Below are positions 7,430 through 62,722 of a stretch of 64,000 nucleotides of DNA, one piece after another (the stretch's first letter is position 1; every line of letters begins with the position of its first letter). The stretch is from Eledone cirrhosa (Eukaryota): NCBI GenBank assembly GCA_964016885.1, contig OZ024743.1:281480001-281544000 (forward strand), written 5' to 3'. The notes under the pieces were generated by a model that was not told the DNA's origin, did no database searches, and worked only from the letters and a program-made list of their open reading frames with translations. The position numbers were made by a program, and so were the translations under genes.

Positions 7430-7725
7430 GTGCACATGGGAAAGCAGGTCTTCTTCAGTGGAGCATGACGCCAGAAATCTCAATCATGGGATATCTCCTT
7501 TGTGAGGTTTAATTTTATTACTTCATCCCAGGCTTTCTTAAGTCTTCCTCTTCCATAGTTTCCATTGACTTTGAGTGCCCTACACCTTTTTATACAGCTG
7601 TCATCCTCCATAAGTATCACGTGTCCAAATCATTGCAATATGCTCTCTTGTACACAGCATCTGACCTCTCTTATACCTAGTTTCTCTCTCAGTTCATTGA
7701 TGCTTTGTTGTTCATGCACACAACT
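7430..7725 (-). mobile_element. RTE 3' fragment
   Basis: LREKLGIREVRCCVQESILQ*FGHV on the minus strand. Confidence 0.75.
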
Positions 7726-8279
7726 ATTACACGTGTGTATATATATATATATCATCATCATCACCGTTTAACATCCATTTCCCATCCTAGCATGGGTTAG
7801 ACAAGTTGTCTTATTTGAGACAAATCGGGTCAGATGATCATGTCTTGCTCATACAGAACTGATTATGGCTTGGTTTTTACAGCTGGCTGCCCTTTCTAAT
7901 ACCAACCATATTTACAGTGAATACTGGGTGCTTTTTGTCATACCTACACGACCACTTTACGGCGTGGTCTGGGTGCTTTTTGTTATGACACCTATACGAC
8001 CACTTGACGGTATGGATTGGATGCTTTTTGTCAAGACACATGACCACAGTGTGGACTGGACCCTTTTGTAGTGTCACCATCACGACCACTTTACAGTGTG
8101 GGCGGGGGGCTTTGATGGAAGGATGTATGTGGATTAGGGAGGTGGGTATATGGGCATGTGTGAGGGGCAGAGTGTTAGGACACGGGAGGTATATGGAGGG
8201 GAGGGGGTGAAGGTGGTGCGTACCAGATGTATACTTCAGCCTGTGCTCATTGGAGGGGAGTGAGTACTATATGTATACT

Positions 8280-9810
8280 TCAACCTGTGCTCATGGGAAG
8301 GCGGGTCTTCTGCATAACGCCAGAGATCCCTGTCCTGTGTCATCGCCTTTGAGTGGTGCAATTGTGCAAGGTCAGCTTTTATCACCTCATCCCAAGTTTT
8401 CCTACTCCATAGCTTCTATTAACTTTGAGCGCTCTGCATCTTTTTATACAGCTGTCATCCTTCATGTGCATCACATGTCCATACCAACACAATCTCCTCT
8501 CCTGCACACTGCATCTGATTCCTCTTATGCCTAGTTTCTCTCTCAGTTCGTTTATGCTTTGCTGTTCACATGTATTACTATTACACATCCATTGAAGCAT
8601 GCGAGCTTCATTTCTTTTCAATCTTCATAAGTTCTCTACACACAGTGCCCAGTTCTCTCTACCATGCAACATTGCTGCTTACACGTCATACAATCTGCCT
8701 TTCATTTTGAAGGAAAAGCTAGCAGTGGTAGTAGCTCCCTGAACTTTTTCCATCCCATCCTCACTCAGGCTACTGTACTTTCAGAACATAAACCTCCACT
8801 TCTAATTTGATCACTTAGGTAGCAGAAGCTATCTACTGCTTCTACCAAACCTTCCCAGAATTTGATAGCGCTTGTTTCTTGTGGTTGTTTGCTACTTACT
8901 GCTCCGGTGCAATGGCTACGTGTAAAACCTACATTCTTAAGTTAATTACCTGAGATCCCACTACATCTCTTGTGTACCCATAGTTTGCATTTAGGACAGT
9001 GGATGGAATTTTTACCTACACCTTTCCTACACACTGTGCAAGGCCATTTCTACTTACTAGGACCTTAGTCTTTGTCAGGTTGGCTTTAAGACCTTTTATT
9101 TCTAAGCCATGCTTCCAAGTTTGGAATTTCTTCTCTAATTCTGGTATAGATTCAGCTATGAATGTAAGATCATCTGCATACAGGAGTTCCCATAAGCAGC
9201 CAGTCTACTCTGTTATAGCCTGCAGAACGATTATAAACAGGAGAGGTCTAAAAACAGAGCCCTGGTGGATGCCAACATGCACGCTAAATTCCTCATTATA
9301 GTTGTTGTTAATCATAACTTTGCTGACTGCTTCCCTATACATGGTTTGTACAGCCTTCACAAACCACTCTCTACTCCTAGTTTCCTAAGAGCCCACCAGA
9401 TTATGACATGGAGAACTCTGTCCAGATCAACAAATGCCAGGTAGAGCAGCTTACTTCTAGCTAGGTACTTCTCCTGTTGCTACTTCACAAGGAAGGGAGC
9501 ATCTGTAGTGCTTTTATCTGGCACAAATTCGAACTGCATTTCATCTAAGTTTACCCGGTCCCTAATCAGCTGTGCTATAAGTCTTTCTGTTACTTTCATG
9601 ACCTGGTCCATCTACATGATGCCTCTATAATTTCCTATATCTAGTGCATCTCCTTCACCCTTGTAGCCATTGATAATGATGCTGTTGTGCCAGTCATTTG
9701 GTATGACACCATTTAGTATTACTTGGTTTACAAAACGAGTGGTTAAGGTGTGACCCACTGACTCAGATGCTTTCAGCATCTCAGCAACTATCCCTGATGG
9801 ACCAGCTGCT
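8280..9810 (-). mobile_element. RTE LINE, degenerate RT to 3' end
   Basis: AAGPSGIVAEMLK, VGIHQGSVFRPLLF, LLYADDL, RRLCWYGHV. Confidence 0.9.
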
Positions 9811-12923: not shown

Positions 12924-13639
12924 AGAGTTAATGAGTTTAAAAAGTATACTTATTTTTACTCTTTTACTAACCTTAGTTTCAGTCATCGGACTGCAGGCAT
13001 GCTGGGGCACTGCTATCAAGGTTTTATTCAATCATATGAACCCCAATATGTTTTTGTTTAATTGAAAGTGTGATACTTATTTTATCAATTTCAACTTGTC
13101 ATGGTGTTATGTTTCAGAACATAAACAATTCACTGGTTTTTAAGCAGTGTAGGTATAAACACAGACTACAGAATTTATTCTCAGAATTATGAGACATCTA
13201 ACTAGATATTCTGAAGCACCTAAAGTCAGGGGTCTGTGAGTACTTTCTTATAAACATAATATACACATACTGTTGGGTTTTCTTTCTTCTCTAGTATAAA
13301 TACTTCTCTTTTTGTATTGTTATTATCACTGTATAACAATCTGGAAGGAGGTTAATTTTAGTATATGGACCCTTAGCAGAGAAAACATTGAGAACCACTG
13401 ATCTAGTGTAACACTGATGGTTGTTCACTTGTATCTCATTGATGAAGTTAACAGTTATGGTTGTTGTTTAGCCCAAGGTCAACCTTGATTAAGCATGTTC
13501 ACTAATCATTAGTTCACAGCATTTTTTCACAATGAGTGTCAATGTCAGTAACTCAGTTTAGAAAAAAGTACCTCAAAGCACTGCTTTTTGGTTTTCTCAA
13601 TGATACTTATATCCTTTGCCTTAATTCATTGGCAAAAGA

Positions 13640-14295
13640 TATGCACCTTCTGCGTGTCTTTCATCATCATTTTTGCACACTCGCACGGGTCCATTTCAAC
13701 ATAGCATCTCACTGTTCATTGCATTCCTTCACCGTCTCTGTAAGTCTCAGCAATTTGAAATCAGCTCTCACCACCTCTACCCAAGTCTTCCCTTGTCTAC
13801 CTCTACTGTGGCTTCCTCCACGGGATTTCCTGGCACTTCTTCACCCAGCGCCCAGTATCAATGCACATCACATGTCTGTACCAATACAGTCTACTCTCTT
13901 GCAAACCTCTTCTGATTCCTCTTTCAGTTTTTCCCTCAGTTCTTCTGTCTTTCTCTCTTGTGTACATCGTATAAAATTTAAGCCTACTCCTTTTCTACAT
14001 ATGGAGCAGGGCCACTTCCCTGAAGGAATCGGAATCCTATCTTCTTTCCTACTGACTAGCACTTTAGTTTTGGCTAAGTTTACTCGCAACCCTTTTGATT
14101 CCAAATTCTGTTTCCATGTTTGGAACTTTGATGGATTCAGCTATAAGGACCAGATTATCTGCGCAGAACAGTTCTCATGGACAGCCAGATTAAAACTCCT
14201 CTGTTATGACCTGCAGAGCTATGATGAATAGCAATGGGCTAAGAACCGAACCTTGATGAACTCCTACCTGTACCTTGAATTCCTCACTAAACTAA
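13640..14295 (-). mobile_element. RTE LINE fragment, internally deleted
   Basis: VGVHQGSVLSPLLF, ESKGLRVNLAKTKVL, SGKWPCSICRKGVG. Confidence 0.88.
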
Positions 14296-16535: not shown

Positions 16536-16754
16536 CCTGGTAGAAAGCAGCTTCTCTTGAAGAATATTCTGGAACAGAATTCTGAAACCAAAGTACAAAA
16601 GAACTCTGAAACGAAACCAAAAGATAAAAAGGCTACAAAGTTGAAATATTTATCATTAGCAAAACAAAGTATGTTATCAGAAGAGAGGGAACGAGTTGTA
16701 AAACTTTACAGAGAAATGAAGAAGAAAAATCATGCTATAAAAAATAAAAAATAA
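16536..16754 (+). CDS. CCDC137: CCDC137 exon 7 (terminal)
   Basis: ttgcag acceptor; PGRKQLLLKNIL...EERERVVKLYREMKKK-stop; the seven exons sum to 903 nt (300 aa plus stop) with consistent phases; AATAAA around the stop. Confidence 0.9.
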   Translation, partial: PGRKQLLLKNILEQNSETKVQKNSETKPKDKKATKLKYLSLAKQSMLSEERERVVKLYREMKKKNHAIKNKK

Positions 16755-17124
16755 ATTTTTTCTGCTGTTTTCTTCTTTTTTTTTCCTGTCTTCATTTATA
16801 TTATCTATAATTGTGTTTTTCTTGAAGTTTTAAAACAGCTGATGATGAGTGGCAGAATAGACAACATACATCACTCTGCCGTGAACTGACAACAAAGCTT
16901 CTATGTGGTTACCCAACCTGTTAGAAATAGCTGTCAAATCACACCTTACTCTCTTAAATAAAGCTTATTGGATAATCTAGTTCTAGATACCTCTACAAGA
17001 ACAAAATAGTTACTGACGGAATTACTTTATCCCTTTAACATTTAAACTAGCCAGAATTCTCTCACCTCTTTCTGTTCAAACCGGCTGTAACTGCCCGCTC
17101 ATACTTATATTAAGGTATTGTTGG

Positions 17125-18516
17125 TTGCAGCAGTATTCTCATAAATTGCTACAAAGGTAAAGGGGATGCTCTGGAGAGGAGTAATTATAGGGGCATAAAA
17201 CTGATGGATCAGGTTATGAAAGTGGCAGAAAGGATATTAGTGCAACAAATTAGAGAAAGGGTCAAACTAGATGATATGCAGTTTGGTTTTGTACAACAGA
17301 TGCCCTCTTCTTAGTGAGACAACTACAAGAGAGGTTCTTAGAGAAGAATAAGCCACTATACTTAGCTTTTGTTGACCTAGAGAAGGCCTTTGATAGGGTA
17401 ACCCGATCTGTCATCTGGTAGTCCCTAAGGAAACTAGGTGTTGAGGAATGGCTTGTGAGGACAGTGCAAGCTTTGTACAGAGGTGCTGTCAGTAAAGTGA
17501 GGGTAGGAATGGAGTTTAGTGAGGAATTCCAGATACAAGTAGGTGTACATCAGGGTTCGGTCCTCGGCCACTCTTGTTCATTATAGTCCTCCAAGCCATA
17601 GCAGAGGAGTTTAAGACTGGCTATCCATGGGAACTTCTCTATACTGACGATCTGGTTCTTATAGCAGAATCAGTAGAGGAGCTAGAGAATAAATTTTGGC
17701 TATGGAAACAGCAGTTGGAATTAAGAGGACTGAAAGTGAACCTAGCTAAGACAAAAGTGTTGATGAGTAGAAAAGAGGACAAAACTCTGATTCCGTCAGG
17801 GAAATGGCCATGTTCAATAGGAAGAAAAGGAACTGGCATAAATTCTATAAAATGTACACGATGCAGATCTTGGGTGCACAAGAGATGTAGTGGGATAGCA
17901 GGCCAACTAACAGGTAGGGAGAAATATGTATGCAGTAGATGTACAGGGAAATTTGACAGTAGAAGTCACATTGATAAGACATTTTTCCAATGCAGGTGGA
18001 TTCTATAGAAGTGGTTGATAGCTTCTGGTACCTAGGTGATCAGATTAGCATGGGAGGGGGGTGTTCCGAGGCCATAGTATCTAGAATAAGGACGGGTTGG
18101 AAGAAGTTTAGGGAGCTGCTGACGAAGAAGGGTTTCTCTCTGCGTACGAAAGGCCGGTTATATGATGCCTGTGTGAGGTGCATGGTAGTGAGACGGGCAG
18201 AGGCTATGCAACGGCTAGAGAGAAATGAGGCAAGCATGTTCCGCTGGATGTGCGTGAAAGACCGAGCATGGATGTGTTGAGAGGGATAAATTGTAGTGTG
18301 CGGGAGAGGAGACTGATGCGCATGGTGGATGACTAATGGGTGAAGAAATGCCAGTTGAAGGAAGAGGTGGTAGAGGTAGACCACGAAAAACATGGGCGGA
18401 GGTGGTGAGAGCAGACCTCAGATTGCTGAAGCTCCCGGTGGAGATGACGAAGGACCGTGACAAGTGAGAGATGCTGTGCTGAATAGGACCTGTCCCACGC
18501 TTGCAAGCAGGGAAAA
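17125..18516 (+). mobile_element. RTE LINE, 5'-truncated and degenerate, inserted in a piggyBac MITE
   Basis: AFVDLEKAFDRV, GVHQGSVL, LLYTDDLVL, GRGRPRKTW; 3' end gcttgcaagcagggaaaa. Confidence 0.92.
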
Positions 18517-24089: not shown

Positions 24090-26265
24090 GGATCTTGCTA
24101 CCGCCCTCTGGGGCCTATCGAAGTTGAAGCCCATCAACTGATTCCAAAGGAAGCTAGGAATTGTTTCACCCATGCTCTCTCCAAACTGTTGAAGAACATT
24201 TTCCTATCCAGCAACACATTGGATTGGCAGAAACAGTTCTTATTACCTCTCATTCTTCTTAATGCGCCTAATGTGAAAACCAGTTACCTTGCATTTTTCC
24301 TAAAATGACACTTTGAGTTGTTTGAGTCCACCCCAACCACTGTTCATCTCGGGTCAGTGATCAGCACAGCTCCTAACACTGAACGATTGCTAAACTTAAA
24401 GGAAGCTTTCAATACCAAATTCAGCAAATTGATATTAAAGGGGCTGTTTGCCTCCTCTCTTTTCTGTCCTTCCTTGCCCAGTGTAATAAAGACTCTTTCA
24501 AACGATTGCGAGACAAACATCCTCTGGCCTGCCTCTCTGGAAAACTGTTTACATGGATCCAACCCACCAGGTTATTTACAACCAGTTTTTACCTCGGATA
24601 AAACCAGGAAGGCAATTGCATCCTTTGCTGCAGGCTCTAGTGCAGAGATTGATGACCTTCAACTCCCAACATCTTAAGGATGCCGGACTTGAGCTCTTGG
24701 AGAGTCTGACTCAGTTTGTCAACATGTCCAAGAGTGTCCTCCCCTATATTTGGCCTTTCTTTTGGGCTAAGTTATTTGGTCTCACAAAACCCAATGGTGA
24801 CCTCCACCCCATTGTTGTTGGGTGTACTCTGAAACAGCTCACAGCAAAAGTGTGTCTGTCATCGGTCTCAGACTGCCTTTCTGCAGAATTTTCCTATTCA
24901 GCAAGGGGTGGATACTAAGCTAGGTTGTGAAGCAGTTGTCCATGCCACAAGAGCTTTTGCCAAATTGCCTTCTGAGATCCCCAAGCTTATTCTCAAACTT
25001 AATCTCAAGAATGCCTTCAACTTCATCAGTTGTGATGTCATCTTCTGCTCAGTAAAGAAGAGGACCCCACAGCTCTACCACTTTACTTGGCAGGCTTATT
25101 GGGATCCCTCCTACCTCTCCTTTGGTGAACATTTCTTCATCTGCTTCAGGGGTCCAACAAAGTGACCCACTTGGACTTACTTTATTTTCTCTAGGCATAA
25201 ATGACATTGCTAAGATAGGGGCTGACCTACATTTGAATGTCTGGTATCTTGATGCTTGTTTGGTGGGTTTTCCAGATAAGATTCTTGCAGAGGAACTTGG
25301 TCATAGGAGCCTCCATTTCAACAGCTCCAAATGCAAGCTCTGGCTCCACATCAGAAGACTGTAGACCTGTTTACAGAATTCTTCCCCTCTATTGCAATAC
25401 CTCCCTCATTGACATGGTGCTCTTTATGAGCCCCAATTACTGACCTAGCTTTCGAGCCCATTTTTCTATCCAAGATAGCTAATCTCGAGCAACTACAAAA
25501 AATATTGAAGCTATTGAGCCCCATCTAGGTTTTTATACTTAAGAATTACCTGTCAATTCATAAGACTGAAGCAGAGAGTTTGGGACAATCTGCATTCGAG
25601 AGACACCTTTAACTCACTGTTTGATCAATTCTCAAAGTGTTGTCTTCTTTCCACGAGCACAAAATTCTTGGGGGACTGGGTTGATGCCCTGCCCATAGCC
25701 AACATCAGTGGCCTACTCCGCCTGGATGAGTTCCAAATCTCCATTGCACTCAGGATGGGAGCCAATGTCTGTGGAAGACTGAGATTTCACTGTGGTGGGC
25801 ACCTGAACTCCACAGATCTTGGTTTGTCATGCTGCCTGAATGCTAGTCTTTCGTTCACCATACCAAGCTAAACCTAGTTATTAAGCGGGCCTTGGCTTGA
25901 GTAAATATCCCCTCAATTCTGGCTGGATTTTCCAGAGTTAATGAAAAGAAACCAGATGGTCTTACCCTTTGTCCCTGGGTAAGAGATAGATGTCTCATTT
26001 GGGACACCACAGTCAGTGACTCTTTCGCTCCTAATCACATCCTTTATGCTGTGGTATATGTGAGGTTCACTGCTTCTGTAGTCGAACAGAATAACATTCT
26101 TAAATACTGGGAATATTGACGCTGTGGTATTTGAAACGTTTGCAGGAGCTGGGCAGCCTACAACAAACTTCTTGTCATCGTTGGTAGGTGTGTAGATGTT
26201 CCACTGCCTTAGCTATCATCTGTGGAAATGCTGCCTGAGTATTGGCTTGCATCAAAAAGTATTAG
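24090..26265 (+). mobile_element. Degenerate CRE-clade non-LTR retrotransposon (RT plus restriction-like endonuclease)
   Basis: KPNGDLHPIVVG, GCEAVVHATR, LNLKNAFN, GVQQSDPLG, WYLD, KKPDGLTLCPW...IWDTT, GNAA; many frameshifts. Confidence 0.85.
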
Positions 26266-27726: not shown

Positions 27727-27774
<48 letters not shown>

Positions 27775-27777
<3 letters not shown>

Positions 27778-29143
27778 AGGTCACCAGTTGGTGCTACTGG
27801 TAACATGTATCCCAGTACAACCTGTCTCATGGTCGGGTCGTTGGCGACTAAACTGACAACCCCACCAAGGTTTCTTGGTGAGGAGGGTGACTTTGGACAT
27901 CCTGCAGGACTAAAAACAAAACCTGTCAAAGGGCAAAGGAGCTCTTAAGAGTCAATGGCCATCCAAAATCACCGGGAGAGATGACCCCTTAGCCTTTGTC
28001 AAGGCAGAATTCTAGGAGAAGGAAAACTCTGATATAACACCTGCAACCCTGATGGTATCCAATGATGTTGACTTGTTCTTCTTTTTGGTAAATATCATCT
28101 TGGTTAAGGGAGTGGGACTGGCTTTGTGCAGTGCCTTTGCTCACTATAAAAGCTTCACGGCACAGGCATTGCTTTATATCTGGAGATCTTTCTGCACTTG
28201 TCGTTACATGGTACCATGGGCCCAGCACTATGTGTCAATAATTGTCACAGGTGTAGTGTTTGTACCAGAGTTTTCAAGTCGCTGGCTGGACTAAAAAGTC
28301 ATATTCGTTCAGCGCATCGGTAGGGGTTCTCCTAGATGGATATAAAGTATTGGCCGTACTCGAAAACGAGTTGGCAGCCACCATGTATGTATGTATGTAT
28401 GTATGTATGTATGTCAGGTCACCAGTTGGTGCTACTGGTAACATGTATCCCAGTACAACCTGTCCCATGGTCGGGTCGTTGGCGACTAAACTGGCAACCC
28501 CACCAAGGTTTCTTGGTGTGGAGGGTGACTTTGGACATCCTGCAGGACTAAAAACAAAACCTGTCAAAGGGCAAAGGAGCTCTTAAGAGTCAATGGCCAT
28601 CCAAAATCACCGGGAGAGATGACCCCTTAGCTTTTGTCAAGGCAGAATTCTAGGAGAAGGAAAACTCTGATATAACACCTGCAACCCTGATGGTTTCCAA
28701 TGATGTTGACTTGTTCTTCTTTTTGGTAAATATCATCTTGGTTAAGAGAGTGGGACTGGCTTTGTGCAGTGCCTTTGCTCACTATAAAAGCTTCACAGCA
28801 CAGGCATTGCTTTATATCTGGAGATCTCTCTGCACTTGTCGTCACATGGTACCATGGGCCCAGCACTATGTGTCAATAATTGTCACAAGTGTAGTGTTTG
28901 TACCAGAGTTTTCAAGTTGCTGGCTGGACTAAAAAGTCACACTCGTTCAGCGCATCGGTAGGGGTTCTCCTACATGGATATAAAGTAGTGGCCGTACTCG
29001 AAAACGAGTTGGCAGCCACCATATATATATAGATGTATATGTATGTATGTATATATGTATGTATGTATATGTATGTATGTATATGTATGTATGTGTGTAT
29101 GTATATGTGTATATATATATATGTATATGTGTATGTATATATG

Positions 29144-29176
<33 letters not shown>

Positions 29177-31795
29177 GTGTATGTATATATGTATATATAT
29201 ATGTATATATGTATGTATATGTGTATGTATATATGTATATATATATATATATATGTATGTATATGTATATATGTATATATATATATATGTGTATGTATAT
29301 GTGTATATATATATATATGTATGTATATGTGTATGTATATATGTATATATGTATATATGTCAGGTCACCAGTTGGTGCTACTGGTAACATGTATTCCAGT
29401 ACAACCTGTCCCATGGTCGGGTCGTTGGCGACTAAACTGGCAACCCCACTAAGGTTTCTTGGTGAGGAGGGTGACTTTGGACATCCTGCAGGACTAAAAA
29501 CAAAACCTGTCAAAGGGCAAAGGAGCTCTTAAGAGTCAATGGCCATCCAAAATCACCGGGAGAGATGACCCCTTAGCCTTTGTCAAGGCAGAATTCTAGG
29601 AGAAGGAAAACTCTGATATAACACCTGCAACTCTGATGGTATCCAATGATGTTGACTTGTTCTTCTTTTTGGTAAATATCATCTTGGTTAAGAGAGTGGG
29701 ACTGGCTTTGTGCAGTGCCTTTGCTCACTATAAAAGCTTCACGGCACAGGCATTGCTTTATATCTGGAGATCTCTCTGCACTTGTCGTCACATGGTACCA
29801 TGGGCCCAGCACTGTGTGTCAATAATTGTCACAAGTGTAGTGTTTGTACCAGAGTTTTCAAGTCGCTGGCTGGACTAAAAAGTCACACTCGTTCAGCGCA
29901 TCGGTAGGGGTTCTCCTACATGGATATAAAGTAGTGGCCGTACTCGAAAACGAGTTGGCAGCCACCATGTATATATGTATGTATATGTGTATGTATATAT
30001 GTATATGTATATATATATATATGTATGTATATATATATATGTCAGGTCACCACTTGGTGCTACTGGTAACATGTATTCCAGTACAACCTGTCCCATGGTC
30101 GGGTCGTTGGCGACTAAACTGGCAACCCCACCAAGGTTTCTTGGTGAGGAGGGTGACTTTGGACATCCTGCAGGACTAAAAACAAAATCTGTCAAAAGGG
30201 CAAAGGAGCTCTTAAGAGTCAATGGCCATCCAAAATCACCGGGAGAGATGACCCCTTAGCCTTTGTCAAGGCAGAATTCTAGGAGAAGGAAAACTCTGAT
30301 TAAACACCTGCAACCCTGATGGTTTCCAATGATGTTGACTTGTTCTTCTTTTTGGTAAATATCATCTTGGTTAAGAAAGTGGGACTGGCTTTGTGTAGTG
30401 CCTTTGCTCACTATAAAAGCTTCACAGCACAGGCATTGCTTTATATCTGGAGATCTCTCTGCACTTGTCGTCACATGGTACCATGGGCCCAGCACTATGT
30501 GTCAATAATTGTCACAAGTGTAGTGTTTGTACCAGAGTTTTCAAGTTGCTGGCTGGACTAAAAAGTCACACTCGTTCAGCGCATCGGTAGGGGTTCTCCT
30601 ACATGGATATAAAGTAGTGGCCGTACTCGAAAACGAGTTGGCAGCCACCATATATATATATATGTATATGTATGTCTGTATATATGTATGTATGTATATG
30701 TATGTATGTGTGTATGTATATGTGTATATATATATGTATGTATATGTGTATGTATATATGTATATATATGTATGTATATATATATATGTATGTATATGTG
30801 TATGTATATATGTATATATATATGTATATATGTATGTATATGTGTATGTATATATGTATATATATATATATATATGTATGTATATGTATATATGTATATA
30901 TATATATATGTGTATGTATATGTGTATATATATATATATGTATGTATATGTGTATGTATATATGTATATATGTATATATGTCAGGTCACCACTTGGTGCT
31001 ACTGGTAACATGTATTCCAGTACAACCTGTCCCATGGTCGGGTCGTTGGCGACTAAACTGGCAACCCCACCAAGGTTTCTTGGTGAGGAGGGTGACTTTG
31101 GACATCCTGCAGGACTAAAAACAAAACCTGTCAAAAGGGCAAAGGAGCTCTTAAGAGTCAATGGCCATCCAAAATCACCGGGAGAGATGACCCCTTAGCC
31201 TTTGTCAAGGCAGAATTCTAGGAGAAGGAAAACTCTGATTTAACACCTGCAACCCTGATGGTTTCCAATGATGTTGACTTGTTCTTCTTTTTGGTAAATA
31301 TCATCTTGGTTAAGAGAGTGGGACTGGCTTTGTGTAGTGCCTTTGCTCACTATAAAAGCTTCACAGCACAGGCATTGCTTTATATCTGGAGATCTCTCTG
31401 CACTTGTCGTCACATGGTACCATGGGCCCAGCACTATGTGTCAATAATTGTCACAAGTGTAGTGTTTGTACCAGAGTTTTCAAGTTGCTGGCTGGACTAA
31501 AAAGTCACACTCGTTCAGCGCATCGGTAGGGGTTCTCCTACATGGATATAAAGTAGTGGCCGTACTCGAAAACGAGTTGGCAGCCACCATATATATATAT
31601 ATGTATATGTATGTATGTATATATGTATGTATGTATATGTATGTATGTGTGTATGTATATGTGTATATATATATGTATGTATATGTGTATGTATATATGT
31701 ATATATATGTATGTATATATATATATGTATGTATATGTGTATGTATATATGTATATATATATGTATATATGTATGTATATGTGTATGTATATATG

Positions 31796-31826
<31 letters not shown>

Positions 31827-33921
31827 ATGTATATATGTATATATATATATGTGTATGTATATGTGTATATATATATATATGTATGTATATGTGTATGTAT
31901 ATATGTATATATGTATATATGTCAGGTCACCAGTTGGTGCTACTGGTAACATGTATTCCAGTACAACCTGTCCCATGGTCGGGTCGTTGGCGACTAAACT
32001 GGCAACCCCACCAAGGTTTCTTGGTGAGGAGGGTGACTTTGGACATCCTGCAGGACTAAAAACAAAACCTGTCAAAGGGCAAAGGAGCTCTTAAGAGTCA
32101 ATGGCCATCCAAAATCACCGGGAGAGATGACCCCTTAGCCTTTGTCAAGGCAGAATTCTAGGAGAAGGAAAACTCTGATATAACACCTGCAACCCTGATG
32201 GTTTCCAATGATGTTGACTTGTTCTTCTTTTTGGTAAATATCATCTTGGTTAAGAGAGTGGGACTGGCTTTGTGCAGTGCCTTTGCTCACTATAAAAGCT
32301 TCACGGCACAGGCATTGCTTTATATCTGGAGATCTCTCTGCACTTGTCGTCACATGGTACCATGGGCCCAGCACTGTGTGTGAATAATTGTCACAAGTGT
32401 AGTGTTTGTACCAGACTTTTCAAGTCGCTGGCTGGACTAAAAAGTCACACTCGTTCAGCGCATCGGTAGGGGTTCTCCTACATGGATATAAAGTAGTGGC
32501 CGTACTCGAAAACGAGTTGGCAGCCACCATCTATATATGTATGTATATGTGTATGTATATATGTATATGTATATATATATATGTATGTATATATATATAT
32601 GTCAGGTCACCACTTGGTGCTACTGGTAACATGTATTCCAGTACAACCTGTCCCATGGTCGGGTCGTTGGCGACTAAACTGGCAACCCCACCAAGGTTTC
32701 TTGGTGAGGAGGGTGACTTTGGACATCCTGCAGGACTAAAAACAAAACCTGTCAAAAGGGCAAAGGAGCTCTTAAGAGTCAATGGCCATCCAAAATCACC
32801 GGGAGAGATGACCCCTTAGCCTTTGTCAAGGCAGAATTCTAGGAGAAGGAAAACTCTGATTTAACACCTGCAACCCTGATGGTTTCCAATGATGTTGACT
32901 TGTTCTTCTTTTTGGTAAATATCATCTTGGTTAAGAGAGTGGGACTGGCTTTGTGTAGTGCCTTTTCTCACTATAAAAGCTTCACAGCACAGGCATTGCT
33001 TTATATCTGGAGATCTCTCTGCACTTGTCGTCACATGGTACCATGGGCCCAGCACTATGTGTCAATAATTGTCACAAGTGTAGTGTTTGTACCAGAGTTT
33101 TCAAGTTGCTGGCTGGACTAAAAAGTCACACTCGTTCAGCGCATCGGTAGGGGTTCTCCTACATGGATATAAAGTAGTGGCCGTACTCGAAAACGAGTTG
33201 GCAGCCACCATATATGTATATATGTATGTATATGTGTATGTATATATGTATATGTATATATACATATGTATGTATATATATATATGTCAGGTCACCACTT
33301 GGTGCTACTGGTAACATGTATTCCAGTACAACCTGTCCCATGGTCGGGTCGTTGGCGACTAAACTGGCAGCCCCACCAAGGTTTCTTGGTGAGGAGGGTG
33401 ACTTTGGACATCCTGCAGGACTAAAAACAAAACCTGTCAAAAGGGCAAAGGAGCTCTTAAGAGTCAATGGCCATCCAAAATCACCGGGAGAGATGACCCC
33501 TTAGCCTTTGTCAAGGCAGAATTCTAGGAGAAGGAAAACTCTGATATAACACTTGCAACCCTGATGGTATCCAATGATGTTGACTTGTTCTTCTTTTTGG
33601 TAAATATCATCTTGGTTAAGAGAGTGGGACTGGCTTTGTGCAGTGCCTTTGCTCACCATAAAAGCTTCATGGCACAGGCATTGCTTTAAATCTGGAGATC
33701 TCTCTGCACTTGTCGTCACATGGTACCATGGGCCTAGCACTATGTGTCAATAATTGTCACAGGTGTAGTGTTTATACCAGAGTTTTCAAGTTGCTGGCTG
33801 GACTAAAGTCACATTCGTTCAGCGTATCGGTAGGAGTTCTCCTACATGGATATAAAGTAGTGGCCGTACTCGAAAACGAGTTGGCAGCCACCATGTATGT
33901 ATGTATGTATGTATGTATGTA
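27775..33921 (+). repeat. Tandem array of eight ~608-bp bipartite non-autonomous RTE-derived units with microsatellite spacers
   Basis: Units 27775-28382, 28413-29020, 29359-29966, 30041-30649, 30980-31588, 31921-32528, 32601-33209, 33286-33892. RTE 5'UTR motif ctaggagaaggaaaactctga, C2H2 like the RTE ORF C-terminus, 3' hairpin, (TATG)n-type tails. Confidence 0.9.
28216..28323 (+). CDS. 35-aa single C2H2 zinc-finger micro-ORF in array unit 1 (copies start at 28854, 29800, 30483, 31422, 32362, 33043; broken copy at 33728)
   Basis: accATGG context; [35 protein letters not shown] fits C-x2-C-x3-F-x5-L-x2-H-x4-H; translation unproven. Confidence 0.35.
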   Translation: MGPALCVNNCHRCSVCTRVFKSLAGLKSHIRSAHR

Positions 33922-37906: not shown

Positions 37907-38471
37907 ATGCAGCATCTACACCCTACTGTCGTTAGCAGTGGTCTATTCCGCCTTCCTGTTATCTTAAGGTGTAGCCGTCACTTCTCAGAAATCTCCTCCA
38001 CCCCTGCAACTGTTAATCCTTCTTCGTCTATTAATATTAAGGCTGCGAGATGGTGGATTTCCAAAGCAGTCGAACAACAAAGCGCGGGAGAGATAGTAGG
38101 AGTTCATCAGAGCCTCTCGTCTACAAACAACAATAAGAACAACAAAGGTAGTGGCGGTGGTAGAGGCCTCAATATCATTGACAGCAGTAATATTGACATA
38201 AGTAGACACAGCAGTAGTTGTAGTAACAGTAGCAATCGCCTACCCACATTGCTCCCCCCTGCCAATAGATCGAGTCCTGCTCGTGTGGTAAGCAATCAGC
38301 GACCAACTTCGCTAATTCGACCGTTGCCATTATTACATCAGCGTCATTCACTTTCGCTCTTCTCTTTCGGTGTGCAGCGACGCTTATTTTCTTTACAAAC
38401 AGAAATCATGTCCTCGTATACAATCATCGAGAAAGGGGTTCCCAACACTAAGAACTACAAAATATATTACA
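37907..38471 (+). CDS. PPA: Inorganic pyrophosphatase (family I, PPA1/PPA2-like) exon 1, with long N-terminal extension; second in-frame ATG at 38408
   Basis: ORF ends MSSYTIIEKGVPNTKNYKIYY, the typical PPase N-terminus; donor GTGAGT at 38472, phase 1. Confidence 0.85.
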
Positions 38472-48225: not shown

Positions 48226-48560
48226 CAACAAACTGTTTTCCAAGAAATACATTGTGTATACAACAAACTGTTTTCCAAGAAATACATTGTGTATACAACA
48301 AACTGTTTTCCAAGAAATACATTGTGTATACAACAAACTATTTTTCAAGAAATACATTGTGTATACAACAAACTGTTTTCCAAGAAATACATTGTGTATA
48401 CAACAAACTGTTTTCCAAGAAATACATTGTGTATACAACAAACTATTTTCCAAGAAATACATTGTGTATACAACAAACTATTTTCCAAGAAATACATTGT
48501 GTATACAACAAACTATTTTCCAAGAAATACATTGTGTATACAACAAACTATTTTCCAAGA
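48226..48560. repeat. 35-bp minisatellite, 9 full units plus a partial
   Basis: caacaaact(g/a)ttttccaagaaatacattgtgtata. Confidence 0.95.
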
Positions 48561-49520
48561 TGCCATAGATGCCAACTTAAGGAATGCAACAGTACTAAAG
48601 TACGCAGACGACATCAAGCTGTACCTTGAGATAAAAAGGACAGATCCTGAACACTATAGATCTTGCTTGCAGTCTGACCTGGACACAATGCAACAATGGA
48701 TCTCAGACTGGCAACTCAAGCTAGCTGTGGACAAGTACACCACCATGCATTTTGGGAGTAAAAACCCAGCGTCCACATACTCCCTCCACAGCACTAATAT
48801 CAAGAAGTCTTCTTGTGAACGTGACCTGGGCATTACGGTCAGTAGCGATTTGCGTTGGACGAGGCACGTCTCTAAAATTGTCAAGAGGGCCGAGGGTGTC
48901 TTAGCATCACTCAGCAAGACCTTTGTCAGCCGCTCTCCAGCTATCTATTTAAGGCTGTATACAGCTATGGTGCGACCACACTTAAAATTTGCATCACCAG
49001 TCTGGAACCCCTATCTTGCTCAGAACATTGACCGCCTGGAAACTGTTCAGAGACGTGCAACCAAACGAATACCCTCCATCAGGCATCTACCATACTCTGA
49101 GCGCCTTGCTTCCCTGGGCATGGATTCATTGAAGCTCTGACGCCTGGCAACTGACTTGGTAAACACCCACAAAATTGTTAACCATGTTGCCAACAATAAC
49201 CCTGAGTACCTTTTTGATTTCCATGTGTCTAACACACGTGGACATGCCCACAAAGTAAGAAAACAGCACAGTTCCCATGACTTTCGGAAACATTTTTTCA
49301 CGCTCAGAGTTGCTGAAGCATGGAACAAACTACCTGCATTAGTTGTTAGCTGTCGAGACACTGCATCCTTTAAGGCCTCCATGCTTCCCGAGATCCGCCA
49401 ACACTACAGCTAACACATACACACATGTACTTCCCTGACATTTGTGTATTATTCTATGTACTATATTGACGAGTTGTAGTGCACCTGAGCACTTTACACA
49501 ATAATTTCATTATTATTATT
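48561..49520 (+). mobile_element. 5'-truncated CR1-type LINE (same family as 50890-54423)
   Basis: KYADDIKLY, ERDLG, MVRPHLKFASPVWNPY, TRGH, WNKLP; premature TGA at 49138; (ATT)n tail. Confidence 0.92.
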
Positions 49521-50889: not shown

Positions 50890-53800
50890 TGACTAAATTG
50901 TGATTGCCATTGGGGTACCAGAGGACAAGGCTGATCTTCAGGCATTTGCTGCCAGCTCAGCCAAAGACCTAGGCTGTGTTCCCCCAAAGGGTGCCCTCCG
51001 CCTTGGTCGACCTGGTCCAAAACCCAGACTCATCAGGCTGTCTTTCTCGGACCCCGCAGAGGCAACCTCATATCATCTGGCCTCTGCTAAAGCTGGGCGT
51101 GAAAATCGCATTACCTTCCGAACATGCCCAGGCCTACCACCCCATGTACGTCCAAAACTACGTGCTGCAGCTTCCTTGAATCGGAACTCAGCACAAGATG
51201 AAAGTTTCAGTCTGCGTGATGATGGGCAGATCTGGAGGTTTGTCAAGGCTGGTCTGAGTGTGATCTACCCACAATAACTGGCAATGTAAAAACTGCTACA
51301 ACTCTGGGAAACTAAACCAGAACAACCGGCCACCCTCTACACACCATCATAAACTGCGAGCAGGGTACAAATTGTTGTCCTTAAATGCTCGCAGTTTATG
51401 CAACAAGATACATCTGTTCGAATCCTACGTCAGAAGCATCGACCCTGACTTCATCACAGTCACGGAAACATGGGCGCATTCCTTACTCTGTGATGGGGTT
51501 TTCACCATTACTGGGTACAACCTTTTCCGCAAGGACCGCATTAACTGCCGTGGTGGTGGTGTGATGGTCTACGTTCGTTCAAACTTTTCGGTAATTCCTT
51601 GCGTTGATTTGAACGAATCACAGGAAGAAGTTTTTTCTGTGACATACGTATGACCATGTCAACACTTCTGCTTGGTGTTGTTTATCGCCCCCCAAACTAC
51701 CATCAGGACACACAGCTTTGCGATATCCTCAGAGTTGCTGCCAAGAAAACAGCCACTTATGTGTTTATTGCAGGTGACTTCAATCATCTTGAGATCGATT
51801 GGGAAACCTTTCATTGGCCACAGGGTGCAAACGATTTCCTTGAACTAGTGCTGGACTCAAACTGGTCACAAGTAGTCACCTCTCCAACAAGAGGTGACAA
51901 CACTTTGGACCTGATCTTCACCACTACTCCTGAAGTGGTTATCAGTTGTACTACTGAGGAACCTCTAGGCGACTCTGATCATGCTATGATCATTGCCAAT
52001 CTGGCACTTGAGGGCAGCAACAAAAACCAGAGCCATCTCCAATCTGCTTGCTTTGATTGGAAGAGGGCGGATTGGAACTTGTACTGCACTGAGCTACAGC
52101 GCCCAAACTGGCATGAGATGTATAACTCTGGAGATGTGAACTCTATACTCCAGAGCATCCTGGACTCAATATGGATAGCGTGTGCAGCATCAGTGCCACG
52201 GAAGCGGAAAAATAACCACCCCAAAAGTGCAATCTGGGAAACTTCAGCGGTCCGACTTGCCAGGAAAGAACGTCGGAACGCTGAACGGGAATATAAACTG
52301 CATAGATCAGATGGCAACAGAAAAAAGCGGAATAAATCTTCTAACCATCTCATGCAAGTGACAAAGAAGGCAGTGCTTGAATTTGAACAGTGCATCGCAA
52401 CCAATCCTGACAGTAAGGTGTTCTGGAAATATGTTCATTCAAAGCAGAGACCTCACTCTCCAGTTGGTCCTCTTCACAATCCCCACACAAGCCAGATCAC
52501 TGACGATCCCAAGGAATGTGCAGAACTCATTGCTGAGTGCTATGCAAGTATTTTTACTGTTGAAAACCAGAATGTACCATCTCCACCATCTCTAACATCA
52601 AATTCCATAACAACTATGGAATTTACACCTGCAATGTTGCGACGTCACCTCAAGAATAAGCGCAACTATGCCTCCCCTGGTCTTGATGGTGTGACATACC
52701 TGCTTCTCAAACGTGGCGGGGATTTCCTTTTGCGCCAGCTTTCTTTTTTCTTTCAATACTGTCTCAGCAATGGTGCTACTCCGGAGCAGTGGAAAACTGC
52801 CAGTGTCATTCCCCTGTTCAAAAAGGGCAACCGCATGTCACCTGTCAACTATCGTCCAGTCAGTCTTACTAGCTGTATGACCAAACTGATGGAATCCTGT
52901 GTCAGAGAAACACTTTGGAACTTCTGGAGCTCTCACAGCCTCATCCGGCCCTCACAGTTTGGATTTATCCCTAACTCCAGCTGCTGTGATCAGCTTATCG
53001 AGTTCCTTGAGGACATCACCCGGATCACTGACAGCGGCTCATGGGTGGATGTTGTTTACCTTGACTTTGCTAAGGCTTTTAATTCTGTGCCACACAAAAG
53101 ACTTATGGCAAAACTCTCTGCAATGGGTGTGAGGGATGATCTTTTCGACTGGCTGAAATCCTTCATTCTCAGCCGAAAGGAAGTAGTCATGGTTCTAGGA
53201 CAGCATTCTTCACCATATGAGATGTCATCTGGTGTACCACAGGGATCTGTTCTTGGTCCTCTTTTGTTTGTGGCATATATTAATGACATAGATGCCAACT
53301 TACAGAATGCCACGGTACTAAAATATGCAGATGACATCAAGCTGTACCTTGAAATCAAAAGGACTGATCCTGAAATTTACAACTCTTTCCTACAATCAGA
53401 CCTGGACACAATGCAGCAATGGATCACAGACTGGCAACTGAAGCTGGCTGTGGACAAGTGTACCACCATGCATTTTGGAAGGAAAAATCCAGCGTCCACA
53501 TACTCCCTCCACAACACTGACATCAAAAAGTCCTCTTGTGAACGTGACCTGGGCATTACTGTCAGCAACGATTTGCGTTGGACAAAGCATGTCTCTAAGA
53601 TTGTCAAGAAGGCCGAGGGTGTCTTGGCATCACTCAGCAAGACCTTTGTTAGCCGCTCTCCAGCCATCTATTTAAAACTATACAGCTATGGTGCGACCAC
53701 ACTTGGAATTCGCATCATCAGTCTGGAACCCCTATCTTGCTCGGAACATTGACCTCCTGGAAACTGTTCAGAGACGTGCAACCAAGCGCATACCCTCCAT

Positions 53801-54423
53801 CAGACACCTACCATACTCTGAACGCCTTGCTTCCCTGGGCATGGATTCATTGAAGCTCCGACGTCTGGCAATGGACTTGGTGAATACCCACAAAGTTTTT
53901 AACCATCTCGCCAACTGCAACCCTGAGCGCCTCTTTGATCTCCATGTGTCTAACACACGTGGACATGCCTACAAGATAAGAAAACAGCACAGCTCCCATG
54001 ACTTTCGCAGACATTTTTTCACGCTCAGAGTTGCTGAAGCATGGAACAAACTGCCTGCGTCAATTGTTAGCTGCCGAGACACTGCATCCTTTAAGACACT
54101 CATGCTTCCCGAAATACGCCAAAACTACACCTGATGTACCCCTTCCATACACATGCACACATGTGTGTATCATGACTCGTGCACTGTTCATTTTACTGAT
54201 GTTTGTGCATTGCCCTATGTACTGTACATGCACTTTTTTGTTGAGTTGTGGTGCACCTGGGCACTGTACACAATATTTCATTATTGTTATTGTTATTATA
54301 TCATGACTCATACACTGTTCATTTTCCTGACATTTGTACATTATTCTATGTACTATACATGCACCTTTGATGAGTTGTAGTGCACCTGAGCACTGTACAC
54401 AATAATTTCATTATTATTATTAT
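50890..54423 (+). mobile_element. Near-complete CR1-clade LINE (ORF1 remnant plus APE-RT ORF2 with two frameshifts)
   Basis: ORF1 RLGRPGPKPRLIRLSF; APE LNARSL, VTETW, YRPP, GDFN, SDH; RT GVPQGSVLGPLLF, YADD; frameshifts near 51640 and 53685; stop 54134; (ATT)n tail. Confidence 0.95.
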
Positions 54424-62606: not shown

Positions 62607-62722
62607 GTAGTTATAGTGGTGTCATCTCACCATTCCATGATATTCCTTTATATACAAATACAGCCAAGACGGTTCTTAATATGGTTGTTGAGATTCCTCG
62701 ATGGACTAATCACAAGATGGAG
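62607..62722 (+). CDS. PPA: Inorganic pyrophosphatase exon 2
   Basis: ttcag acceptor; [10 protein letters not shown]...[15 protein letters not shown]; donor GTAAGT, phase 0. Confidence 0.95.

Follow-up and report, generated by a model that had tools for sequence, protein, structure and literature searches.

An eight-unit array of a bipartite RTE-type retroposon in Eledone cirrhosa, with a predicted xrRNA-like module at the start of each unit

Why do eight near-identical units stand head to tail between two genes in Eledone cirrhosa, how did they come together, and what could fix the start of the RNA of such an element? We address these questions for a window of 64,000 nucleotides, the whole stretch of DNA analysed here. 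Our best explanation of the whole, which we hold with a probability of roughly 0.55, combines about four insertions, local duplication and recombination, use of the array as template for a dimer now found on another chromosome (contig C19), and a predicted knot that sets the 5' end of the element RNA. The main new point is this predicted knot, an xrRNA-like module at the start of each unit.

The array and its units

The eight-unit, head-to-tail array on the + strand is real as first described. The lengths of the units (607-609 bp) in the preliminary description were confirmed, as were spacers 1 to 7 (30, 338, 74, 330, 332, 72 and 76 bp), a last tail of ~28 bp (given earlier as ~29 bp), the (GT)n run before the first unit and the lack of a TSD distinguishable from the flanking microsatellites. 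The position of the array between two genes likewise held: it is intergenic, flanked by a CCDC137-like gene and a pyrophosphatase gene.

16537..16754, + strand: last coding exon of the CCDC137-like gene, 11 kb upstream of the array, on the same strand
27729..27775, + strand: (GT)24 run, insertion site of U1; its last bases give the U1 leader and invariant G
27776..28383, + strand: U1, 608 bp, putative founder copy
28384..28413, + strand: spacer 1, 30 bp, simple (TATG)n tail
28414..29021, + strand: U2, 608 bp, putative founder, of the dispersed 282T/384A lineage
29022..29359, + strand: spacer 2, 338 bp, long complex TA/TG tract
29360..29967, + strand: U3, 608 bp, probable founder, with 36T/273T/455G
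29968..30041, + strand: spacer 3, 74 bp, short complex tract
30042..30650, + strand: U4, 609 bp, recombinant type with U8-like 5' half and U2-like 3' half
30981..32529, + strand: U5 (start 30981, 609 bp), spacer 5 (31590-31921) and U6 (start 31922, 608 bp), the segment recurring on C19 of G000 (L002/L082)
32602..33210, + strand: U7, 609 bp, 1 difference from U5
33287..33893, + strand: U8, 607 bp, putative founder and most diverged unit (17 differences from the column majority)
33894..33921, + strand: terminal (TATG)7 tail, ~28 bp, after U8
38408..38471, + strand: probable first coding exon of the inorganic pyrophosphatase gene, 4.5 kb downstream of the array

An AATAAA lies near 16957, past the CCDC137-like exon, and the next pyrophosphatase exon, near 62607, matches PPases. 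Units differ pairwise at 1-23 columns, and the spacers form two near-identical classes, 2/4/5 and 3/6/7, the first of which is also present on C19. The flank past the terminal tail is itself a genomic repeat; no further unit copies were found within the 64-kb window. The invariant first base of the element is a G one position before the start first assigned (67/68 copies), and a short leader stands upstream of it.

Alignment to relatives indicates that each unit joins the 5'UTR of an RTE-type LINE to the last zinc finger and 3' hairpin of such a LINE, as in U6:

31921..32331, + strand: 5'UTR-derived part, 316/425 aligned bases identical to the L212 5'UTR
32332..32469, + strand: LINE ORF-end remnant (end of one zinc finger, a whole C2H2 finger, stop)
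32496..32529, + strand: 3' stem-loop and terminus, from the hairpin fold and the match to the relatives' hairpin

L212 is a full-length EN-RT-zinc-finger element; identity of the unit's 5' part to two other relatives, L167 and L214, is 78% and 71%. The junction lies at roughly unit nt 410; beyond it, the 3' part codes for a C2H2 finger (PF00096, E 1.9e-5) that is 40-46% identical to the C terminus of L051. The 3' hairpin matches the L051 family at 27/32 positions, and the L214 3' end aligns to the unit. Folding of this hairpin beats 200/200 shuffles (z -3.45), and it is likely the RT recognition site. The alignments to L212, L051 and L214, the PF00096 match and the hairpin fold thus bear out the earlier reading of an RTE-like 5'UTR fused to an RTE-like ORF end with a 3' stem-loop, that is, a non-autonomous derivative that keeps both cis-ends. 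The label "RTE-type" for the relatives is a provisional one, drawn from domain order (APE-RT-C2H2), a short 3'UTR and sequence motifs. We rejected a Pol III SINE, given that RTE 5'UTR occupies the unit from base one; no tRNA-, 5S- or 7SL-derived head was seen by eye or among the Rfam matches of the unit.

The unit belongs to a dispersed, very-high-copy family with at least 24,457 3' ends in the genome. None of the 66 sampled copies lacks the 3' end; 22 are full-length, and truncation in the other 44 occurs at scattered points. Fixed 3' ends with varying 5' truncation are as expected of TPRT dispersal. Dispersed copies had been anticipated and were found, but an autonomous partner carrying both ends at high identity was not: relatives reach ~69-84% only, among 30/43 and 30/103 loci inspected with search patterns that could miss a parent.

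Bipartite RTE derivatives are known, namely Bov-A/Bov-A2, RTESINE1/2, WALLSI3 and the RTE-N families (PMC5786205, PMC4324840, available sections). The unit resembles them in its 5'UTR plus extreme RTE 3' end, microsatellite tail and lack of a tRNA-like head, and its stacks have a counterpart in the Bov-A multimers described there (Bov-A2 dimer, adjacent insertions, Bov-A4). It differs in its 608 bp, with the whole 5'UTR from base one and a zinc-finger coding remnant, and in stacks of up to eight; an xrRNA-like module is not part of the descriptions in those sections. Repbase/Dfam may already include this family.

A predicted xrRNA-like module

Each unit appears to carry, in its first 57 nt, every sequence-testable feature of a subclass 1a flavivirus xrRNA, the type represented by Rfam RF01415 (PMC8374639, PMC7527734, PMC5760640, PMC13161572, available sections). 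The ranges used for subclass 1a were P1 of 5 bp, P2 of 1-9 bp, P3 of 4-8 bp, Pk1 of up to 2 bp and Pk2 of 3-8 bp. The predicted elements, with U6 as example, are:

31918..31977, + strand: xrRNA-like module, predicted fold (it starts all eight units)
31918-31920, + strand: leader
31921, + strand: invariant G
31923-27/31966-70, + strand: P1, 5 bp
31928-31/31936-39, + strand: P2, 4 bp
31940, + strand: junction C between P2 and P3
31941-46/31958-63, + strand: P3, 6 bp
31920-21/31964-65, + strand: Pk1
31950-53/31974-77, + strand: Pk2, 4 bp
U31922 with A31942-U31962, + strand: putative base triple
31978..32026, + strand: two more conserved hairpins, P4 (31978-32003) and P5 (32009-32026), directly 3' of Pk2

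Like the viral subclass 1a RNAs, the module has a 5-bp P1, a variable P2, a 6-bp P3, a single C between P2 and P3, the positions of a U·A-U triple, a 2-bp Pk1, a 4-bp Pk2 followed directly by P4, a 5' end 5-6 nt above P1 and tandem copies. It differs in its place at the start of a cellular retroposon, whereas viral xrRNAs lie in the 3'UTR, and in having U-A both as junction-side P1 pair and as first P3 pair, whereas the viral junction is described, in the sections available, as all C-G.

In 13 sequences (alignment A1), 87-96% of cells in the three-way junction P1/P2/P3 are paired as judged from sequence, and 95.4% of cells overall, with two-sided change at 4 pairs. The single junction C is present in the unit and in 12/13 rows of A1; in a set of 27 related sequences it was fixed by the search pattern, so that set is no test of it. 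Among the triple positions, A22-U42 is kept in 13/13 rows and U2 in 9/10 rows with letters. In Pk1, G1-C44 is kept in 10/10 and U0-A45 in 26/27, without covariation. Pk2 is 100% paired in A1 and keeps the commonest pair at each position in 22-27/27; it is a palindromic 4-mer, and its last pair is broken in 9/92 copies. Only P2 and P4 covary: these very close sequences have no two-sided changes in P1, P3, Pk1 or Pk2. Across four relatives 33-35/38 core positions are conserved, versus only 5-7/12 in P2, and at least three autonomous RTE-type families carry the same module.

RF01415 tops the Rfam matches at the 5' end of the unit and also at that of a relative, with scores of 24.4, 26.2 and 29-29.6 bits; the gathering cut-off is 54.5 bits, and we therefore do not count the module among the RF01415 members. 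Genome-wide, RF01415 gave three matches, all at 5' ends of the unit or its relatives, at E 6.6-9, a level at which 7/14 control genomes also match. A structure-only descriptor, written after the sequence was known, matched the unit 5' end only, with 0 non-family matches in 701,538 bases and 2/20,000 in shuffles.

Genomic 5' junctions peak at -6/-5 of P1 (21/71, versus a background of 23/781), with 12/71 at -7/-6; in related families 12/30 fall at -6/-5. Xrn1 is reported to halt 5-6 nt upstream of P1 (PMC5760640), and the junction peak, an indirect guide to the RNA 5' end, appears to coincide with this distance. The same peak would result from an internal promoter with a start at -5 or from cleavage by an unknown ribozyme.

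We consider it a tentative possibility, at slightly less than even odds, that in this RTE group and its 24,000-copy mini-element the first 57 nt are a functional subclass 1a xrRNA, with host decay replacing a promoter or ribozyme and stacks serving as multimeric sources. The element would need no promoter: Xrn1/Xrn2 would trim host read-through RNA 5' to 3' and stall 5-6 nt short of P1; the RNA that remains would be protected, with a fixed start that the knot fold would explain. Internal knots would not cut, so that multimers would survive.

The module might instead be an internal Pol II promoter or a binding site for the RT protein, with a start ~5 nt upstream and an xrRNA likeness that is due to chance or is a non-resistant look-alike. 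A near-invariant core without covariation, sub-threshold Rfam scores and LINE 5' ends said to drive transcription (PMC5786205, available sections) suit this reading, but P2 varies in sequence while its pairs stay, common variants within nt 1-106 concentrate at unpaired sites (33 such sites hold 88 changes, the 71 paired ones 90), and all 1a tertiary positions as well as the halt distance agree with an xrRNA; we regard this reading as rather unlikely. In our view it is improbable that the module is a self-cleaving ribozyme of an unrecognised kind, cutting unit RNA out of read-through transcripts. HDV-like and twister ribozymes are described at the 5' ends of R2, L1Tc, RTE, Baggins and schistosome elements, and in R2 SIDEs; RTEs are reported without promoters and with HDV-like ribozymes (PMC6765202), and twister variants in schistosome non-LTR elements (PMC8501958, available sections of both). 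The 5' end of the unit is fixed, as a ribozyme would make it. But the 5' ends of five elements gave no match to an HDV-like descriptor (nested double pseudoknot with P1.1 GG and catalytic C) and no hammerhead core (CUGANGA), no ribozyme family appeared among Rfam matches to E 10, and the C19 dimer has the U6 module uncut in its middle, though cleavage can be incomplete. The proposed xrRNA resembles such ribozymes in taking a fixed 5' end from a host co-transcript and in being passed to internally deleted derivatives; it differs in that it would act by stalling an exonuclease, so that internal units would stay joined, and in that no ribozyme motif was found in these elements.

Stacking, the array and the C19 dimer

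Head-to-tail runs account for 21/100 of the 3' ends listed, among which adjacent pairs are same-strand in 13 cases versus 1 opposite-strand (0.32 expected); at loci not picked for clustering, same-strand neighbours number 10/52 versus 0/52 opposite-strand. Divergence within stacks is 4.2% (37 pairs) versus 4.0% between loci, and 5' truncations differ. Same-strand stacks are thus usually independent insertions into (TATG)n tails. Since copies both end in and sit in (TATG)n/(TA)n tracts, we infer from this pattern that fresh insertions target existing tails and take the orientation of the copy already there. RTE-generated microsatellite families have a short 3'UTR ending in simple repeats and slippage-expanded tails (PMC2887409, available sections); the unit shares the simple-repeat tail, but its tails would also be landing sites, giving oriented stacks.

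In the array, U1, U2, U3 and U8 would be founders that inserted separately into the element's own microsatellite tails, and U4, U5, U7 and U6 would have arisen by unequal crossover and conversion, as common variants and spacers suggest. U1 has 7/9 variants in common with the dispersed copy L198, the U3 variants 36T/273T/455G also occur together in the dispersed copies L018 and L021, and U1 and U8 are as distant from the remaining units as separate copies. By contrast, U5 and U7 differ at one column, units carry mosaic variants, and U4-U7 with spacers 2-7 have private variants in common, as in a concerted tandem array. The term "local macrosatellite" used earlier therefore fits the duplication of U4-U7 and spacers 2-7, but not the stack as a whole: runs are family-wide, founders separate and only the inner units duplicates.

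On C19, the U5-spacer-U6 dimer is 1532/1536 identical to the array. It is 5'-truncated at unit nt 14, ends exactly at the element terminus and continues in a (TATG)n tract unlike spacer 6, with no unique flank in common with the array. Each of three array-private markers is present only in the array and C19. This dimer makes it likely, from sequence comparison, that the array or a close allele was a source once; read-through RNA over U5-U6 would have been reverse-transcribed into a C19 (TATG)n tract, starting from the U6 3' hairpin. The second C19 unit differs from U6 at two sites, so the donor was presumably an earlier state or another allele. The C19 dimer is the single known daughter of the array. 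The suggested "source locus" stands for that dimer, but not as a prolific master, since array-private variants occur in no monomer elsewhere.

It is not very likely that the C19 dimer was copied at the DNA level, by ectopic repair or conversion, or that both loci stem from a third source outside the assembly, the array then being inert. There is one case only, with two differences from present U6, and the microsatellite flanks mask any TSD and provide microhomology; the 3' end exact at the element terminus, the unlike (TATG)n tract after it and the truncated 5' end without co-copied unique flank argue against it. All eight array units are full-length, versus 22/66 sampled copies, which counts against our preferred explanation and in favour of one-step insertion of the whole array from a multimeric or circular RNA (a rolling-circle or template-jumping concatemer), and C19 indicates that multimers can be copied. 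We nevertheless judge this quite improbable: the variants in U1, U2 and U3 belong to different dispersed lineages, no unit has diverged further than U8, the spacers fall into three kinds, and the complex spacer is found only in the array and C19. Least probable, despite the single-column difference between U5 and U7, is partial assembly duplication of the inner units (U5/U7, U4), as no two spacers are identical and the U5-spacer-U6 junction recurs independently on C19 with differences of its own.

Implications

The array illustrates well how copies stack, recombine locally and are retrotransposed as multimers, all of which are known processes. The predicted module would reach further. A 2021 review describes xrRNAs as characterised in viruses only and poses the question of cellular examples (PMC8374639, section 7), and our search of titles and abstract openings, with subscription journals and Repbase/Dfam outside its scope, found no report of a retrotransposon xrRNA. 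If the prediction is true, this would be a cellular xrRNA of viral fold, either taken over from viruses or the ancestor of their version, and one would have to ask whether there has been exchange between RNA viruses and retroposons. Xrn1 resistance of the module would add a third way to define a non-LTR 5' end, after promoters and ribozymes. One animal genome would then contain thousands of exonuclease roadblocks, possibly affecting termination and intron decay.

A dispersed bipartite family and its relatives

The 608-bp mini-element that forms the eight units of the array (U1 to U8) is dispersed throughout the 3.0-Gb assembly. A DNA search with the unit returned 1177 candidates, of which 40 were scored to give 42 matches of 98-100% identity on many contigs, and the 28-nt 3' end of the unit has 24,457 exact matches in the genome. 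Copies diverge from one another by about 4%, and TA/TATG tracts flank most of them. Among 66 copies reaching the 3' end, sampled from the list of 3' ends, 22 are full-length and 44 have scattered 5' truncations, a pattern that is the signature of target-primed reverse transcription.

The 5' ~410 nt of the unit match the 5'UTR of full-length elements coding for an endonuclease, a reverse transcriptase (RT) and a C2H2 finger: 316 of 425 aligned bases are identical to the 5'UTR at locus L212, identity is 78% and 71% to the pair L214/L167, and nt 191-397 are 69% identical to L051/L062. The remainder consists of the ORF end of such a LINE (C2H2 finger) and a 3' hairpin, which matches that of family L051 at 27 of 32 positions and folds with z -3.45 relative to shuffles. 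Folding was no better than that of shuffles for the whole unit (z -0.86) or for its first 109 nt folded without pseudoknots (z -1.3). The relatives appear to be of the RTE type, based on the bipartite architecture and on motifs that we take to be characteristic of this type. PMC5786205 describes bipartite non-autonomous RTE derivatives with the architecture of the mini-element.

The preliminary description had looked to a genome search for dispersed copies and an autonomous partner; the former are present in the numbers given here, and five approaches yielded no parent with high identity at both ends. A search with the zinc-finger remnant against longer proteins, which is a weak test, found nothing, and one pattern search gave two matches, both mini-element variants. 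A further pattern gave 43 matches (30 loci inspected, 13 viewed as strings) and the last gave 103 (30 inspected), with only variants, truncations and nested copies among those inspected. The direct parent may have died out, may be rare or may have escaped these searches, and the RT may come from a relative. A loose contig end resembling a LINE was rejected, as its 94 genomic matches (30 inspected) belong to an unrelated dispersed repeat (L087-L116), the left edge of which is sharply defined and lies about 260 bp before the matched motif.

Several variant forms were observed. A second bipartite non-autonomous family of about 530-630 bp (L221, L222, L229-L232, L235, L237, L242 and L243) combines the mini-element's 5' module with a relative's 3' hairpin. 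Copies at L039 (9182-9203), L130 (1484-1506), L041 and L076 have their first 22-23 nt fused to a downstream part, or internal deletions, reflecting either template jumping by the RT around the end of helix P2 of the module or deletions arising later. Twin-priming-like 5' inversions or internal rearrangements are found at L048 (4917-5333), L059 (1205-1751) and L046 (1312-1762). The unit is also near-identical in runs X2, X5, X6 and X7, which bear four organism codes, three of them at very low depth; these are probably traces of one host's DNA. A further run, X1, which is possibly RNA, contained two contigs of low depth, and contigs failed to span the right-hand junction of the array; neither observation speaks for or against transcription.

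Stacking and local duplication

Head-to-tail stacking is a habit of the whole family. The first 100 entries in the list of 3' ends include 21 that belong to same-strand clusters, namely six pairs, a group of four and a group of five, and adjacent pairs within 1.4 kb number 13 on the same strand versus one on opposite strands, with 0.32 expected. At loci chosen on other grounds, a neighbouring copy within 700 bp lies on the same strand for 10 of 52 copies and on the opposite strand for none. Median divergence is 4.2% between stack neighbours (37 pairs, including a dimer on contig C19) versus 4.0% between unlinked copies, and truncation points differ between neighbours; this indicates separate insertions into earlier tails. 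Extrapolation to genome-wide stacks of at least eight units gave 0.01 to 6, a range too wide for use.

Re-measurement of the window gave the same eight units and spacer lengths as first described. The array is intergenic, with a gene on its own strand on either side:

16754, + strand: end of the last coding exon of a CCDC137-like gene (ESM Atlas score 0.95)
38408, + strand: probable ATG of a pyrophosphatase gene

A Pfam search of these flanking genes returned no names. Intron 1 of the pyrophosphatase gene apparently spans about 24 kb (38471-62607) and contains a near-intact young APE-RT LINE (50897-54134, + strand, 714-aa frame); a truncated relative of this LINE (~48560-49413) follows a 35-bp tandem repeat at 48226-48560. 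A different LINE family, also abundant and encoding an RT and a PHD-like finger, is represented by fragments on both strands (185-517, 7483-9809, 13536-14231 and 17114-18280), and a decayed RT-like element of a different type, with broken frames and no Pfam match, occupies 24309-25871 (+ strand).

By comparison with other stacks, the inner part of this array is duplicated. Spacers 2, 4 and 5 (338, 330 and 332 bp) form one class of near-identical complex TA/TG tracts, spacers 3, 6 and 7 (74, 72 and 76 bp) form a second near-identical class, and plain (TATG)n constitutes spacer 1 and the terminal tail; Rfam miRNA matches in the spacers were low-complexity noise. Units differ pairwise at 1-23 columns. 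Seven of the nine variants of U1 recur in L198, a dispersed copy, U2 is of a 282T/384A lineage, the U3 variants 36T, 273T and 455G are present in two dispersed copies from a sample enriched for 455G, and U8 is the most diverged unit. U4, U5 and U7 have U8-type marks in the 5' part (12C and an additional A at 155), U2-type marks in the 3' part and the extra marks 259T and 354T, and U6 resembles U3 except for 282T and two changes private to it. This mosaic would be explained by about four founder units and later unequal crossover and conversion, in an order that we leave general, and we are highly confident that the array arose by stacking plus local duplication. Signs of local duplication at L141/L142 and L077 (A-B-A order; a recurrent truncation point with an identical spacer) suggest that duplication after stacking occurs beyond this window.

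In a genome search, the long-spacer-to-unit junction was found three times in the array, once on C19 and nowhere else. The marker combination 259T and 282T is present in U5, U7 and C19, and the private pair of U6 only in U6 and C19. The C19 locus corresponds to U5 from nt 14, spacer 5 and U6 with 1532 of 1536 positions identical, differs by a TA slip and two substitutions that are each of U3 type, and ends at the exact element 3' end within a (TATG)n tract; no unique flank is common to this locus and the window. The simplest reading, which we consider probable, is that a read-through transcript of the array, in an earlier state or from another allele, was retrotransposed to give the dimer. Alternatively, it may be a DNA-level copy, or both loci may derive from a third source. 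No monomers elsewhere carry the array markers, so that a role of the array as a master locus is unsupported.

The xrRNA-like 5' module

The unusual part of the mini-element is its predicted xrRNA-like 5' module, the first 57 nt. RF01415 (flavivirus 3'UTR stem-loop IV) was the top Rfam match at the 5' ends of both the unit (24.4 bits, E 0.026) and a diverged relative (26.2 bits, E 0.01), far below the cut-off of 54.5 bits; with this gathering score not reached and resistance only predicted, we do not file the module under RF01415. Genome-wide, three RF01415 matches were reported, at 29-29.6 bits and E 6.6-9, from the 64 candidates scored among 216,717, all at 5' ends of the mini-element or a relative; matches at this E also occur in 7 of 14 control genomes, and high copy number favours the mini-element family. 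The module was mapped by hand.

Predicted features of the 5' module (invariant G as nt 1)
P1: 3-7/46-50
P2: 8-11/16-19
Single junction C: C20
P3: 21-26/38-43
Pk1: U0-A45 and G1-C44
Base triple: U2 with A22-U42
Pk2: 30-33/54-57
P4: directly after Pk2

These features are those given for subclass 1a in PMC8374639, PMC7527734 and PMC13161572. In 13 aligned 5' ends, 95.4% of cells are paired versus 28-48% when slid; two-sided changes occur at four pairs, all in P2 or P4, changes in P1 are one-sided only, and P3, Pk1 and Pk2 are almost invariant. Compared with four relatives, nt 1-7 agree at 7/7 and nt 20-57 at 33-35 of 38 positions, and P2 at just 5-7 of 12; a variable P2 is likewise reported for the viral class. 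A descriptor leaving the P1 sequence free, composed after the sequence was seen, matched a single site in the unit, the 5' ends of 18 family members and no others in 701,538 bases, and matched 2 of 20,000 mononucleotide shuffles. The module is carried by at least three autonomous families with endonucleases ~49-57% identical to that of L051, and 1,734 more non-mini 5' ends fit its pattern. Across 92 mini-element copies, substitution density is twice as high at unpaired as at paired sites, and the last Pk2 pair is broken in nine. Covariance model R1, run against 72 sources (412 kb), revealed no relatives of the module more remote than these.

Two loci show the module in other settings. At L213 (783-956; genome G000, contig C4 from 191558782), the same module (~190 nt) stands before a GC-rich 5'UTR of another kind and an EN-RT ORF that is less closely related (49% to L051), which suggests 5'-module swapping between RTE families. 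L215 carries, at 8216-8429, an 88% match to nt 1-196 of the mini-element, situated upstream of an EN-RT region that is distantly related (26-28% to L051), through either chance nesting or capture of the module by a different LINE.

If trimming sets the start of the template, the join to the target is expected at the exonuclease halt site, a test that could fail. In mosquito-borne flavivirus xrRNAs, the halt of Xrn1 is placed 5-6 nt before P1 by PMC5760640; PMC7749634 gives about 5 nt, and PMC13161572 two positions upstream of PK1. In 71 full-length copies within alternating microsatellites, where the junction can be read as a phase break, the break lies at -6/-5 in 21 copies and at -7/-6 in another 12, compared with 23/781 for positions further upstream (p 5e-13). 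Of the 16 copies with mixed flanks, left out of this set, 13 have T at -5 with mixed bases at -6. Thirty related elements, including two duplicate-looking pairs, peak again at -6/-5 (12), with 3-7 per position from -8/-7 outward. The five-base leader varies (15 TATG, 3 TGTG, 3 others), as expected if its bases derive from the flank of the source copy.

A promoter start at -5 would produce the same junction peak, and so would a ribozyme cut at this position. Against a ribozyme, an HDV-like descriptor had no match at the 5' ends of five elements, a hammerhead core is absent, and the C19 dimer retains its internal module uncut. Rfam gave no match to twister, pistol or hatchet in the unit, and to our knowledge these motifs do not fit the module. 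Overall, we put the probability that the module is a functional xrRNA at roughly 0.45-0.5.

Known kinds and a proposed route

Both the array and the bipartite element are further instances of kinds described before, in PMC5786205, PMC4324840 and PMC2887409, and a table in PMC13282606 lists recent activity of RTEs and SINEs in an octopus. According to PMC8374639, a 2021 review, viruses were at that time the only known source of xrRNAs. Our literature search by title and abstract found no xrRNA reported in retrotransposons.

RNA made beyond a poly(A) site is a substrate of Xrn2, an exonuclease that xrRNAs can block. The module is predicted to act like the RF01415 xrRNA: decapped host read-through or intronic RNA would be degraded 5' to 3' up to the first knot, and the stall there would give the remaining element RNA a fixed start. 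Acting in trans, the RT of an RTE would bind the 3' hairpin and prime in a TA/TATG tract, often that of an older tail, so that stacks would grow by insertion into older tails. Such stacks would recombine and may be copied as multimers.
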